A stretch of DNA of 35,863 nt from a virus. Positions within the stretch are counted from its first letter, which is position 1; every line of letters starts with the position of its first letter. Of the stretch, positions 4,848-35,196 are shown piece by piece. The DNA lies in the UHGV virus genome UHGV-0129071. One strand, 5' to 3'. Made by a program: the position numbers and the translations under genes. The notes beneath the pieces are model-generated. The model was given only the letters and a program-made list of their open reading frames with translations, searched no databases and was not told where the DNA came from.

Positions 4848-5159
4848 TCAGGCTGCTGAGGTTTCTTCTTTCAGGCTTTCGATATATTTACGTGGGTCGT
4901 CGTAACATTGGCATTCGCTGTACCAATCTACCCAGCGATCAGTAAGCCCCATCTCTGATAAATCTTCATCGGTAAGGCTCTCATTCCACATCTCAAGGCC
5001 GTTAGCATTGCAGTAATCAGGCTTGATGTTGTTGTCATACTGAAAGGCGTCATAATCAGCCAGTGCGTCCATCAGGCGAACACCCTCTTCAACACTTGCC
5101 ACTTCTACGATGAACGGCTTCATCGGTACTTGCGGGATATGCCAGACACGTAATTTCAT
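4848..5159 (-). CDS. hypothetical protein (103 aa)
   Basis: ATG at 5159 with GGAGAA SD (track ORF extends to 5213 without SD); acidic C-terminus. Confidence 0.5.
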   Translation of the reverse strand: MKLRVWHIPQVPMKPFIVEVASVEEGVRLMDALADYDAFQYDNNIKPDYCNANGLEMWNESLTDEDLSEMGLTDRWVDWYSECQCYDDPRKYIESLKEETSAA

Positions 5160-5312
5160 ATTTTCTCCGTTAAAAAAATCGCCCTCACACTGGAGGGCAA
5201 AGAAGATTTCCAATAATCAGAACAAGTCGGCTCCTGTTTAGTTACGAGCGACATTGCTCCGTGTATTCACTCGTTGGAATGAATACACAGTGCAGTGTTT
5301 ATTCTGTTGTTT

Positions 5313-12624: not shown

Positions 12625-12791
12625 TTGACCCAAATCGAAGTTACGAACAAGAAAGCGTCGAGCGGGCTTTAACGTGCGCTAACTGCGGTCAGAAGCTGCA
12701 TGTGCTGGAAGTTCACGTGTGTGAGCACTGCTGTGCAGAACTGATGAGCGATCCGAATAGCTCAATGTACGAGGAAGAAGACGATGAGTGA
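12621..12791 (+). CDS. ninF: NinF (GTG start)
   Basis: (M)[47 protein letters not shown]... matches recalled lambda NinF; not in ORF track because GTG start and under 60 aa. Confidence 0.7.
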
Positions 12792-13505
12792 GTTAATAAA
12801 TGGCAATGCCATCAAAATGACAAGCATTGAAATCGCTGAGTTGGTGGGTAAGCGTCATGACAATGTGAAACGTACCATCGAAACGCTGGCTAAAAATGGT
12901 GTTATCCGGCTTCCTCAAATTGAGGTTTCCGAAAGAATCAATAACTTAGGGTTCAATGTTCAGTACGAGCATTACGTCTTCGAGGGCGAACAAGGTAAGC
13001 GAGACAGTATTGTCGTTGTTGCCCAGTTGTCGCCAGAGTTCACCGCTCGTCTTGTTGACCGCTGGCGAGAGCTTGAAGAAGCTGCGGTTAATATCCCCAA
13101 AACGCTACCGGAAGCGTTGCGCCTTGCTGCTGACCTTGCTGAGCAGAAAATGCAGCTGGAAAACCAGCTCGCAATTGCCGCACCTAAAGTTGAGTTTGCC
13201 GATCGCGTTGGCGAGGCCAGTGGAATTTTGATTGGAAACTTTGCAAAGGTTGTTGGAATTGGTCCAAACAAACTGTTTGCGTGGATGCGCGATCACAAAA
13301 TCCTATTGCTTCAGGTTCCCGGCGAAATGTGCCAATGCAGGAATATATGGATCGCGGCTATTTCACAGTGAAAGAAACAGCGGTCAACACAAATCACGGA
13401 ATACAGATATCGTTCACCACAAAAATCACCGGGCGTGGTCAACAGTGGCTGACCAGAAAGCTGCTCGATAACGGAATGCTGAAAGTAACAGGGGAGGCTG
13501 CTTAA
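12784..13505 (+). pseudogene. Rha/Roi-like regulator with KilA-C (antirepressor C-terminal) domain, split across two reading frames
   Basis: Frame A (12784..13371) carries N-terminal domain and start of KilA-C (LFAWMRDHKIL); frame B (13281..13505) carries remainder (NVPMQEYMDRGYFTVKE...GRGQQWLTRKLL); frames join near 13305..13340. Confidence 0.5.
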
Positions 13506-16956: not shown

Positions 16957-17499
16957 ATGAACTACCCAACCGTTGTTAACGATATAGATTTCAGAGACCT
17001 AATTTTTGTAGCAAACAACGATCCGGTTACAGATTCTTTTATGGTGGCAAAAGCATTTGGAAAGCTGCCGAAGAACGTGGTTCGTGACATTGAACGAACC
17101 ATAGAAGCTTGCCCTCCTGAGTTTGATACAAAGCTCAACTTTGAGCTTTGCTATAAAAACAATGAGTTACAGAATGGTAAACCGCAAAAATTCTACCGTC
17201 TCCGCAAGGATGGGTTGATGCTTTTGGTTATGTCCTACACCAAAAAAGAAGCAATGCGTATCAAAATTGCTTACATCAACGCATTCAACTGGATGTACGC
17301 CATGCTTCAGGTTGGTCATCGTCAATTTGAAGAAGAGAGAAATGCCGTAATGCTGGAGTACATGAAAGAGAAGGATGTTGCCAGCATGTCAGGCCGCCTG
17401 CTTAATCGCTGGGGAAAAATTAAGAAGCCTCAGCTACTGGCGAGAATTGAACGCCTTGAACAGCACGGGCAAACCGTAATCCCCGGACTCACCAATTAA
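16957..17499 (+). CDS. rha: Rha-family phage regulatory protein
   Basis: 180-aa ORF; N-terminal region (DSFMVAKAFGKLPKNVVRDIE) typical of Rha family; same location (lysis to terminase) as P22 rha. Confidence 0.7.
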   Translation: MNYPTVVNDIDFRDLIFVANNDPVTDSFMVAKAFGKLPKNVVRDIERTIEACPPEFDTKLNFELCYKNNELQNGKPQKFYRLRKDGLMLLVMSYTKKEAMRIKIAYINAFNWMYAMLQVGHRQFEEERNAVMLEYMKEKDVASMSGRLLNRWGKIKKPQLLARIERLEQHGQTVIPGLTN

Positions 17500-32001: not shown

Positions 32002-32367
32002 ATGAAAAAAGTTAACATTGGAAACGTACCAAAGATGCTCGTTCCGCTCTTTGAGAGCGGTACAATTGTGTTTTGTAGAGACTTTCCAGAATGGCAACGC
32101 CTGCATCAAAAACTTGGCGTTGACGTGCATGACTCGGACGCCAACGGAGCGTCTCATACAATGAGTAGCGAGAATGGTGTTTTGCATGTGATAGGCGTGT
32201 TCAATGGCAAACTATCTACTATTGCCCATGAGTGCGCTCACATGGCATTCGATATCTGCTCAAGGGTAGGTGTTGATGTTGAACCAGGAAGAGCCAACGA
32301 GACTTACTGCTACTTAATGAGCAGGCTTGTTGAGTTCTGCGAGCGACATATCAAAAAGCCGGAGTGA
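32002..32367 (+). CDS. small HExxH-motif protein (121 aa), possible minimal zinc metallopeptidase-like
   Basis: ATG 32002; contains IAHECAHMAFDI (HExxH) after predicted beta-rich N-terminus; divergent from the secreted-protein gene. Confidence 0.4.
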   Translation: MKKVNIGNVPKMLVPLFESGTIVFCRDFPEWQRLHQKLGVDVHDSDANGASHTMSSENGVLHVIGVFNGKLSTIAHECAHMAFDICSRVGVDVEPGRANETYCYLMSRLVEFCERHIKKPE

Positions 32368-32380
32368 CCCGGCTTGATTA

Positions 32381-32560
32381 TTACTTTTTGCTGTCTGGAG
32401 TTCGCTTATCCAATACCCAGCCATGACCTGGCTTTGTTGTTGGTGGAAGCCTTTCGTTGTCCTTGACGGTTGCAAAATTGTCTTTCTTACCGCCGCGTGG
32501 GCCAACTTCTTGGTATATTCCGCCGTTTTTTCCTGTGTTTTCACCTGGTTTTTTCGCCAT
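32381..32560 (-). CDS. YjzC-like small protein (59 aa)
   Basis: ATG 32560 with GAGGT SD and own sigma70-like promoter (TTGACT...); motif G.Y.EVGPRGG...TV...LPPT...GHGWVL resembles YjzC family. Confidence 0.45.
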   Translation of the reverse strand: MAKKPGENTGKNGGIYQEVGPRGGKKDNFATVKDNERLPPTTKPGHGWVLDKRTPDSKK

Positions 32561-32650
32561 GATATACCTCAACATACACCCGTTATTGGGCGATTAAATA
32601 TTGATCTCATTTTATAAGTAGTCAATATGGCCCAGGTAAATGCAAAAATT

Positions 32651-32675
32651 AACCCACCTTCAGGTGGGTTTTTTG
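32651..32675. terminator. bidirectional hairpin terminator at mnt 3-prime end
   Basis: AACCCACC-TTCA-GGTGGGTT flanked by A-run upstream and T-run downstream. Confidence 0.5.
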
Positions 32676-32911
32676 TACAAATCCTTCAGCGTATCAAACA
32701 CCATCTTCTTAACAAGTTCAGACTGCTCATCAGCGATGCGTTCCGCATCGTCTCGATAGCCTGAAATTTTGGATGGCTTTGATACGGCATCAGTCACTAT
32801 CTGAACTAATTCTGAATTAAGAGAGCGGCCATTGGATTTGGCTCGCTGTTTTAGTTTTTCCTTTAATTCGTAAGGTAGCCGCAGATTAAATTGCGGGTCA
32901 TCTCTTCCCAT
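32660..32911 (-). CDS. mnt: Mnt repressor (ribbon-helix-helix, Arc/MetJ family)
   Basis: 83-aa ORF MGRDDPQFNLRLPYELKEKLKQRAKSNGRSLNSELVQIV...DAERIADEQSELVKKMVFDTLKDLYKK matches recalled P22 Mnt. Confidence 0.85.
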   Translation of the reverse strand: MGRDDPQFNLRLPYELKEKLKQRAKSNGRSLNSELVQIVTDAVSKPSKISGYRDDAERIADEQSELVKKMVFDTLKDLYKKPT

Positions 32912-32974
32912 TCTTGATGCCTCGCTTTTGTGAGTGGATCGGCATCTTATTATCTGCTGGTTGCATCCTCAATA

Positions 32975-32989
32975 AGACCACAGTGGTCT
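32975..32989. promoter_or_regulatory. Mnt operator-like palindrome
   Basis: AGACCAC-A-GTGGTCT perfect 15-bp palindrome resembling the P22 Omnt core (GGTCCACGGTGGACC) in mnt/tailspike intergenic region. Confidence 0.5.
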
Positions 32990-33057
32990 CTTTGTTTGAT
33001 TAATAATGCATCACTGTGGCAATGCTGCGGCGATTCCTTGTATCTGGAGCAAATTAA

Positions 33058-35196
33058 ATGACAGACATTACAGCCAATGTTGTAGTGAGTATGCCTTCGC
33101 AACTCTTCACTATGGCGCGTTCTTTTAAAGCCGTAGCCAATGGCAAAATTTATATCGGTAAAATTGACACTGATCCTGTAAATACAGAAAACCAGATTCA
33201 GGTCTATGTGGAGAATGAAGACGGTTCTCACGTTCCTGTTTCGCAACCAATAATCATTAACGCTGCTGGATATCCGGTATATAACGGACAGATTGCCAAA
33301 TTCGTTACCGTGCAAGGCCATTCTATGGCTGTTTATGATGCGTATGGTGCGCAGCAGTTCTATTTTCCTAATGTGCTGAAGTATGACCCTGATCAACTAC
33401 GGCAGCAATTAGAAGACCCGGATGGAGCTAAAAAATATCCTGAATTGCAGATATCTCGGTGGAGGGACGATTGTGATGTAAGAGGGTGGGGGGCAAAAGG
33501 CGATGGTATAACAGATGATACATCTGCATTGATCTTGGCTGCAGAATATGCACGAGAATCATCCAAAACATTACGAGCGGAAGGTAATTTTATTATTACG
33601 GAGACATTAAATCTTCGTAATGTCAGCCTCGAAATGACCAATGCTGTTTTTACCATATCCCACTCAGGAATAGGGGTATTGCTTGGCGGGAATGCATCAA
33701 ACCCTAACAACCCAAGACAAAACTTCGGAACGATTATCAGAAATTCTGGTATTTCATCTGAAACGACACCGGATATTCGTATTATCGGGGCAAAAGGGCA
33801 GCATATAAACATTGAGCGTTGCGACTACTTACAGTTATATGCAAATTATAATGCTTCGGTGGCATCGACGGATTATTCAATAGCATACTCAACCTTTAAC
33901 CTGAAAAAGGTCGATACAATTCATTTTCTTGGAGTTGAGAACGGATGGATAAATGAAAACTATTTTTATCTGAATCGTACGAATAATATCATTTTCGCTG
34001 ATAATCCATATCATCATAACCACAATAAGTTTTATGGTGGAACTATGGAGGGGGCAGGTAAAATTGATATTCAAAGAGGTGATAACAATTACTTCTACGG
34101 GTTTCGTTTTGAACGAGATCCATCATCCCAAACTAACCAACAGTTGATAATTAACTTTGGTGAATATACGTGGAATAACTCAATTGAAGCTACATGGTTA
34201 AGTTCTCCTTACTATACAAATGAGCCATACAATCCATCACCTTACACTTATGTCGAGGTAACTGATAATGGCAAGGGGAATGCAGTATTTCATATTCAGG
34301 AAAATATATCCGATGAAGTAACATTGTTTTCTTTAAATGCTAACACCCCATTTATATCCAGTGCTAACAATGGAGAAGTTGGTGTATTAGCATTTCAAAC
34401 AGATGTAGATGGTTTATATAATATCCGTCACCTGGTTTCTTCTAAGTTTGCTTTTATGCGGAATTTTGGGTTGTTATGGGAATCTGGAGATGTACCAGTA
34501 AGAAATGGTGATATGTTTACATTCTCAGCAGATACGGCATCGTTTCGCATTTACCTGTATGCATTAGATGGAGATGGGAATGTCATAACTTCACAAACAG
34601 AAGCAATAACCTCTTCTATGCAATGGGATTCATCTAACCATAGATATGCTACTGTTGCTAACATTTCTTCCATTAAGATCAGGATTAATAATGAAGGGGT
34701 TCCAGTTAGTGCAATTCGTTTAGCTGTGTATTCTGGTGGTAATGTAGCGAATACTGCATTTTCATGGCTATGCTTAACTGGTAGATATTACAAAAATAGC
34801 ACATCCTTGCCAAGGAAAAGCAAAGATAACTTCACCTTAAAACAAGGAAAAGCAATTACTTATTATAGTGATACTGATATTAGTATGGCTAACATTGGTT
34901 CAGGAATTACCTGTTATAAAACCGATTTATCTGAACTCAAAATTAATCTTGTAAGGGGCAGGTATGTAGTGAAATCAATTTCAGGCAGTGAAATATATGT
35001 ATACCAAGGAACAGTCACTTATTACCCTCCATTCAGTGATATCAAATTGGTATATACGGATGGGGTTGAAAATAAATTATTAGATGTGCAAAACATCTCT
35101 TCAGAAAAGATTACTCTTGCAGATACAGTACCATCAGCTATATCTGCAGGTGATTTTGTAGATATTATTGTTACAAAGACGAAATCTATTTTATGA
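33058..35196 (+). CDS. tailspike protein (P22 gp9-type N-terminal head-binding domain, divergent receptor-binding domain)
   Basis: 712 aa; N-terminal about 115 aa ([11 protein letters not shown]...[19 protein letters not shown]...VLKYDPDQ) matches recalled P22/HK620/Sf6 tailspike head-binding domain; remainder differs from P22. Confidence 0.85.

Follow-up and report, generated by a model that had tools for sequence, protein, structure and literature searches.

In phage P22 the immI region is made up of mnt, the promoters Pmnt/Pant, the operators Omnt and Oarc, arc, sar, ant and the terminator t-ant. For P22, and for phage L, which has been known since the 1960s, read-through of the late operon into the tailspike gene is accepted. 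This region was named the 'ant moron' by Villafane et al. 2008 (PMC2629481), and a form of the moron with mnt only has been described for phages ST64T, ST104, Para1 and L (PMC2629481; 10.1101/2020.10.05.325894). Why a phage that lacks an antirepressor should keep the antirepressor's repressor is a question posed in the phage L genome paper.

The window analysed here, meaning the whole 35,863-nucleotide stretch of viral DNA (UHGV-0129071), belongs to a P22-like (Lederbergvirus) E. coli phage or prophage, the nearest relatives being CUS-3, phiv205-1, Kapi1 and HK620. It carries a leftward mnt between the injection genes and the tailspike gene, located last before the tailspike and unaccompanied by arc or ant, which makes it an mnt-only 'ant moron'; a complete P22-type immI is not present, there being no arc or ant, no strong Pant and no sar. 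Both the ORF coordinates and a tblastn search of the window agree with the earlier note in that 146 bp separate the mnt and tailspike starts and that arc and ant are absent: when the whole window was searched for arc the sole match was mnt itself, and for ant the top match (E=0.08) was not significant. An Rfam scan of positions 32300–33300 for the sar antisense RNA returned two chance-level matches only (E up to 1), and the arc-ant interval that would encode sar is missing from the window. The coordinates of all features are given in Table 1. A 43-aa ORF starting with GTG at 32930–33061 was dismissed because lineage indels of 11–13 bp break its frame. Elsewhere in the window there are two Rha-family ORFs on the plus strand, one at 12784–13371 with an extra KilAC 'ANT' domain (PF03374) and one at 16957–17499 with an ORF11CD3 domain, and no Mnt-type operator was found near either of them at up to 3 mismatches.

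Table 1. Positions of genes, predicted signals and sequence features in and around the mnt–tailspike gap of the window
Feature	Position	Strand	Basis or remark
Terminator-like hairpin AACCCACCTTCAGGTGGGTT	32651–32670		T-runs on both strands; overlaps mnt 3' end; flagged by scan on both strands
mnt	32660–32911	minus	ORF, 83 aa
mnt–tailspike gap	32912–33057		146 bp
mnt Shine-Dalgarno GAGG	32920–32923	minus	8 nt before ATG; column invariant in 35 distinct gap sequences
Putative decayed Pant relic TCGGCA (32939–32944)-17-TGCATC (32962–32967)	32939–32967	plus	P22 Pant register
Predicted Pmnt -10 TAAGAT	32944–32949	minus	Weight-matrix scan and P22 Pmnt position relative to operator
Predicted Pmnt -35 TTGAGG	32967–32972	minus	1–2 bp from operator
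Putative 17-bp Mnt operator, L/Gln6 class, AAGACCAC-A-GTGGTCTC	32974–32990		Palindrome, half-site conservation and protein pairing
Perfect 7-N-7 palindrome AGACCACAGTGGTCT	32975–32989		Centre 32982
Hypervariable junction, putatively from arc-sar-ant deletion	32990–33010		Overlaps outermost non-palindromic operator base 32990
RNA hairpin CTGTGGC-AAT-GCTGCGG, 7 bp	33014–33030	plus	Tailspike 5'UTR, ~28 nt before ATG
Tailspike Shine-Dalgarno GGAG	33046–33049	plus	8 nt before ATG; invariant in alignment A1
Tailspike gene	33058–35196	plus	ORF, 712 aa

The arrangement had been taken as unusual, a view that did not hold: the mnt-only layout beside the tailspike is common as well as already published, and is not new. 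When 5426 complete E. coli genomes were searched, 104 had the whole mnt–tailspike arrangement. Across 601 bases around the gap, identity amounts to 99.4% with Escherichia phages Gally (OV696608) and vB_EcoP-720R6 (ON470605); with Salmonella phages ST160 and SE1 and with several ST- and SW- isolates, all of the same layout, it amounts to 85% across the full length. The layout alone adds little: in the part of P22-like genomes that changes most, it is a common and published variant.

By both of its domains the predicted protein belongs to the Mnt repressor family (ribbon-helix-helix, Arc/MetJ superfamily): residues 3–50 match the Arc-like ribbon-helix-helix DNA-binding domain (Pfam PF03869, E=2.8e-22), residues 53–80 match the C-terminal tetramerisation domain Repressor_Mnt (Pfam PF11423, E=2.2e-18), and the PDB entries 1mnt and 1qey are matched with E=2.8e-34 and E=3.1e-12, respectively. 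It is 76% identical in amino acids to P22 Mnt, and its beta-strand motif is PQFNLR, with Gln6 at the position where P22 has His6. The PQFNLR motif is also present in P22 Arc (PQFNLRW). The gene is mosaic, its first 150 nt being 53–77% identical to P22 and its last 70 nt 92–100%, and in the mnt of phage L the N-terminal half seen in the window is fused to another C-terminal half. This mosaicism and the phage L hybrid imply that the DNA-binding domain, the promoter and the operator move as one unit. Between the window and the Salmonella orphan alleles, mnt has a dN/dS of 0.07–0.10 at dS ~0.5, and the orphan gene is thus under purifying selection rather than a dead remnant. The Gln6-type ORFs analysed, 71 in number (the window, five GenBank/RefSeq loci and 65 IMG/VR loci), are all intact at 83 codons, and on these alignments neutral decay of mnt is unlikely. 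The hairpin at the mnt 3' end corresponds to 'tMNT' of HK620, annotated there as a terminator linked to the mnt remnant. A pattern scan of genome contigs with Mnt gave 600 matches and zero confirmed relatives, the short query probably being the limiting factor.

The perfect palindrome pointed out in the earlier note is indeed present in the gap, and over 17 bp the window (AAGACCACAGTGGTCTC) is identical to P22 Omnt (AGGTCCACGGTGGACCT) at 11 of 17 positions, the differences falling at the symmetric positions 2/16 and 4/14, at the centre and at position 17. On its own the palindrome is not beyond chance, because the window contains four perfect 7-N-7 palindromes as against 2.2 expected; its significance comes from its fixed location 71 bp from the mnt start, from conserved half-sites around a variable centre, and from its recurrence beside Gln6-type mnt genes whose promoter and flank sequences are otherwise unrelated. 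Among the 35 distinct gap sequences, column diversity is 0–0.11 in the half-sites and reaches 0.75, the maximum possible, at the centre. All four bases are found at this central position (A in the window, C in L024, T in L042 and G in L006), the 14 arm positions are nearly unchanged among gap sequences, and the centre of the P22-type operator also varies (G or C). Single operator mutations occur in a few relatives (L016, L029, L038, L058 and L067). In the same set of 35 sequences positions 32912–32988 are conserved, and diversity and indels jump at 32989–33024; this jump to the right of the operator indicates that the conserved unit ends at the operator's right arm, and, since the whole left 77 bp is highly conserved, conservation of the operator is not cleanly separable from hitch-hiking with mnt and its promoter. 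When aligned with P22 immI, these left 77 bp (mnt 5'UTR, Pmnt and operator) share the mnt-Pmnt-Omnt geometry. A second copy of the operator, which would mean another target in cis, was not found in the window at up to 3 mismatches. A GATC (Dam) site at 32936–32940 forms part of the invariant block AGTGGATCGGCATC, near the point where mnt transcription is predicted to begin, and is kept in 34 of the 35 distinct gap sequences, L063 having GAGC.

What the palindrome is predicted to be, namely the operator of a second Mnt specificity class, becomes clear from the pairing of proteins with sites. Eighty IMG/VR loci, fetched by Mnt protein similarity, were analysed together with the window and six mnt-carrying GenBank/RefSeq loci. 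Among the 80, all 65 loci with an Mnt starting MGRDDPQFNLRL (Gln6) are without arc and ant, and all 15 with an Mnt starting MARDDPHFNFRM (His6, P22-like) have both genes. In every protein-selected locus the PQFNLR (Gln6) type of Mnt pairs with AGACCACnGTGGTCT, centred 65–72 bp from the start codon, and the PHFNFR (His6) type with GGTCCACnGTGGACC, 66 bp from the start codon. With Gln at residue 6 and the operator AGACCACnGTGGTCT, the window stands outside the His6/GGTCCACnGTGGACC class of P22. Residue 6 is said to be a base-contacting residue of Mnt, in work by Youderian and colleagues from 1983, by Knight and Sauer from 1989, and by Sauer and Susskind. In the Gln6 loci from IMG/VR the head-binding domain of the tailspike begins 135, 146–148 or ~420–430 bp after mnt.

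An IMG/VR scan with the operator alone identified at least three contigs that are not P22-like (L092, L145 and L156). In these, the AGACCACnGTGGTCT operator has a Gln6 mnt on one side and, on the other, a consensus-like Pant with arc and ant behind it. The Pant of these intact Gln6-type modules reads TTGACA-17-CATCAT or CATTAT. Further Gln6 loci (L220/L221) have arc and a different type of antirepressor, with GTGGTAT as the operator right arm. The flanks of the intact Gln6 modules are unrelated to the window, and the co-occurrence of protein and site in them is therefore independent evidence for the palindrome as the operator of Gln6-type Mnt. Intact modules of this kind are rare, five loci from at least four contigs being found among the matches listed; L145 and L218 are the same contig, as are L156 and L219, and the L092 contig was missed by the protein scan. 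No E. coli prophage with arc-ant was found to have the Gln6 operator, those complete genomes with arc-ant that were inspected being all of the His6/P22-operator type, with a Pant/Oarc/Omnt region that is nearly the P22 one. L156 shares 82% identity with ES18/SPN3UB-like siphoviruses, and among the ES18-type phages examined this metagenomic relative is the only one with the Gln6 module: the same operator was absent from the ES18-like Salmonella phages SPN3UB and S107, where a different Arc-family regulator and a different repeat are found instead. Positions 780–880 of SPN3UB (L216) belong to such a region, with the different Arc-family regulator, an Arc-like repressor and an antirepressor, and contain the motif GGTGTTAACTT twice. 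It seems that the modules controlling antirepressors can be exchanged as cassettes between phages of different types.

The promoter predicted for mnt sits where Pmnt does in P22, with its -35 abutting the operator. Scored with a simple, crude sigma-70 weight matrix, for which the background was the best score in each 250-nt tile of the window, it reaches 10.5 bits as compared with a 90th percentile of 9.34. The corresponding hexamers are TTGTGG-17-TATGAT in the Salmonella lineage and TTGAGA-17-TATCAT in P22, so that the Salmonella letters differ from those of the window yet stay promoter-like. On the other strand, the -10 of the hexamer pair TCGGCA-17-TGCATC ends 15 bp from the operator centre, exactly as in P22 Pant, and we read this pair as a decayed Pant: its -35 agrees with the consensus at 4 of 6 positions and its -10 at 2 of 6, the conserved A2 and T6 of the latter being lost. 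Among relatives the old -10 takes the form T[G/A/T][C/T]ATC, with TATATC in some Salmonella variants.

To the right of the operator, column diversity is 0.36–0.75 over 32989–32999 and mixed (0–0.52) up to 33010, and the lineage indels of 11–13 bp are located in this junction. The T-rich tract at 32991–32997 lines up with the T-tract that ends the ant terminator in P22 and HK620 (alignment A2, read without row L011), which places the right end of the presumed deletion inside that terminator. The right ~47 bp of the gap share homology with the bases immediately before gene 9 in P22, and from 33011 onwards the leader is common to P22-like tailspike genes regardless of moron content; most E. coli genome matches start at this position. 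The hairpin in this leader is common to P22, epsilon34, HK620 and more distant P22-like contigs, with 95.8% of alignment cells paired as against at most 70% in slid controls, and 0 of 500 shuffles reach the observed score. There are seven double-sided changes, at two of the seven pairs (C-G to U-A, and A-U to G-C or U-A), and the many U-G pairs indicate that the hairpin forms in plus-strand RNA. It is deleted in some relatives (L033 and L058). Residues 1–113 of the tailspike correspond to Pfam Head_binding (2.2e-66) of the P22 gp9 type, and this N-terminus is 76% identical to that of P22 gp9.

Several side observations concern the tailspike start in relatives. A gap of ~420–430 bp is found in L006, L026, L037, L054–L058, L063, L067 and L072; in L006 (4480–4780) the old tailspike start is kept as ATGACAGATATT, after which loci of this type have an AT-rich insert of ~280 bp and then a different tailspike gene with its own start. 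This longer gap is evidently a tailspike replacement through recombination just inside the old gene. The 922-bp 'gap' of L034 (IMGVR_UViG_2541047745_000011) was considered as a different moron and rejected, since it is explained by insertion of IS1 in the tailspike gene: an IS1-like element, recognised from an InsB-type ORF, is located near the tailspike 5' end. In P22 (L003) a direct repeat of ~22 bp, AAAATTCACCGTAGCCA(C/T)GCT, is present between ant and gene 9 at 5125–5147 and 5233–5255, flanking ~108 bp; HK620 has it only once, which points to a duplication or insertion ahead of the tailspike leader in P22.

On balance we consider it probable that the 146-bp gap serves to control a self-contained mnt cassette like that of phage L and is not a promoter region of the tailspike. 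Such a cassette would probably be autoregulated and left behind after the loss of arc and ant. Read leftward, the gap would consist of the 17-bp operator, the abutting -35 TTGAGG, a 17-bp spacer, the -10 TAAGAT and a short leader with GAGG ahead of mnt. In P22 and in the intact modules of the same class, the operator also covers the start of the strong rightward Pant, from which arc and ant are expressed; in the window these two genes are missing, as are sar and the stem of the ant terminator, Pant would have decayed to its present hexamers, and the right arm of the operator would have been joined to the former T-tract of the ant terminator, followed by the conserved tailspike leader with its hairpin and GGAG. 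The anatomy of the gap, its homologies, the match between the classes of protein and of operator, and the purifying selection on mnt are established by comparison of sequences; that arc and ant were deleted, as opposed to inserted elsewhere, is a direction we infer from relic signals only.

In this cassette, Mnt tetramers would bind the operator and act in cis on their own promoter region only, as autoregulation. Transcription of the tailspike would come, as in P22, from antiterminated polymerase of the late operon; this operon has only one promoter and includes the moron, all of which would be read through. The benefit of Mnt probably lies in trans: mnt may have been kept since Mnt made by the prophage could silence promoters of the Pant type that have this operator and are carried by incoming or co-resident phages, so that a foreign antirepressor would be prevented from inducing the prophage. 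This role in trans-immunity is conjecture. Taken to its full extent, the proposal is that orphan mnt of the L type works by itself as a defence gene of the prophage: the phage would have lost its own antirepressor and kept only the repressor cassette, and Mnt from the prophage would silence in trans the same-operator promoters of foreign antirepressors. This is a speculative reading to which we would give a low chance. If it were true, the ES18-type siphoviruses (contig L156) would be among the targets, the lysogen would be protected from induction by foreign antirepressors, and Gln6/AGACCAC and His6/GGTCCAC would represent two specificities of immunity that had evolved naturally on a single repressor fold.

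The alternatives have to be weighed against the same evidence. In the earlier note it was suggested that Mnt may directly regulate a promoter reading into the tailspike. On this model Mnt, bound at the palindrome, would repress such a promoter in the gap and so set tailspike expression directly, for example silencing the tailspike in the lysogen. The operator does lie between mnt and the tailspike, at the place where the P22 operator blocks Pant; hexamers in the Pant register survive, including the TATATC of some Salmonella relatives; with the stem of the ant terminator gone, a rightward transcript would meet only a weak hairpin; and the literature contains speculation that Mnt/Arc may influence transcription into the tailspike. 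However, the consensus scan reports no plus-strand promoter in the gap, and the best rightward candidate there, at 5.1 bits on the crude matrix, is under the background median of 6.95 and far under intact Pant (15.5 bits in P22, 11.3 bits for the Gln6 type). The old -10 lacks two conserved bases and drifts among relatives, and P22-like phages without mnt, such as HK620, have the same tailspike leader, so that a promoter of this kind is not needed. A tailspike promoter under Mnt control thus finds no support in the sequence, and we regard it as improbable. We are about equally doubtful that the palindrome acts mainly as RNA or as a roadblock, that is, as a weak intrinsic terminator shielding the tailspike in the lysogen or as an Mnt-bound obstacle tuning late read-through. 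Positions 32975–32989 together with CTTTGTTTGA were flagged as terminator-like by a scan, GTATTTTTTT(T) directly follows the palindrome in several E. coli variants, and the adjoining T-tract matches that of the ant terminator; P22 itself is reported to control its tail protein by termination before gene 9, in work of Berget and colleagues from 1983 (ref. 76 of PMC2629481). Against this, the hairpin is weak, with -5.5 to -6.4 kcal/mol (z of about -1.1 to -1.5) as compared with -14.1 for P22 t-ant, and the U-tract is interrupted in the window and absent altogether in the Salmonella lineage; a variable centre between conserved arms and the pairing with the protein class fit recognition by a protein better.

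The remaining alternative, also raised in the earlier note, is that the locus is a deletion remnant of immI. As history this stands, on comparison with P22; as a dead or passive remnant it does not, since mnt is under selection and the layout, an old one, occurs in phages of both E. coli and Salmonella. In its neutral form, with mnt and operator as functionless, decaying leftovers, the idea was raised as a possibility in the phage L paper and agrees with the loss of arc, ant and Pant, with HK620, which demonstrates that the whole region can be lost, and with the single operator mutations of the five relatives named above. These points are set against the low dN/dS in the orphan lineage and the full length of all Gln6-type ORFs, against promoter hexamers that vary across lineages and remain promoter-like, and against the presence of the arrangement in over a hundred complete E. 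coli genomes and many Salmonella phages, and we hold the neutral reading to be very unlikely. The question of the phage L paper is narrowed by these results: mnt is selected, its operator and promoter are intact, Pant is gone, and the same operator guards antirepressors in other phages. Useful by-products are the Gln6/His6 operator pairing, which provides a natural protein–operator specificity pair (Gln6/AGACCAC versus His6/GGTCCAC) for a classic model repressor, the selection on orphan mnt, and the conserved hairpin of the tailspike leader.

In comparison with known systems, the locus is most like that of Gally and vB_EcoP-720R6, the 99.4% identity covering mnt, the gap and the tailspike start; the neighbouring annotations there read 'Mnt repressor' and 'tailspike protein'. 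The window differs from them in the moron genes left of mnt and in the distal tailspike domains. With L, ST64T, ST104, SE1 and ST160 it shares the order of injection gene, small moron genes, leftward mnt, short gap and tailspike. The phage L-type moron has the same Mnt N-terminus MGRDDPQFNLRLPYELKEK, the operator AAGACCAC-C-GTGGTCTT, the Pmnt layout and the junction with the gene 9 leader, and the gap sequences of phage L and ST160 can be aligned with that of the window over their whole length save for an indel of 11–13 bp. Unlike the window, the mnt-only Salmonella phages have a gap of 135 bp, without the 11–13 bp T-rich tract, and a Pmnt of TTGTGG/TATGAT, while phage L has a different C-terminal tetramerisation domain in Mnt.

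P22 immI resembles the window in its homologous mnt, gene 9 leader and 17-bp operator architecture, the distance of the operator to the mnt start and to the Pmnt -35 being equal in both, but the window is without arc, sar, ant, Oarc and the t-ant stem, has a putatively decayed Pant, and carries Gln6 in place of His6. The intact Gln6 modules (L092, L145, L156 and L220/L221) share with the window the ARDDPQFNLRM motif and an operator adjoining the Pmnt -35, and differ in keeping a strong Pant, arc and an antirepressor, in a longer and unrelated C-terminal part of Mnt, and in their siphovirus backbone. The remnant in HK620 (tMNT and tANT only) occupies the same site between moron genes and tailspike and has the tailspike leader with its hairpin; HK620 has lost mnt, the promoter and the operator, whereas the window keeps all three intact.
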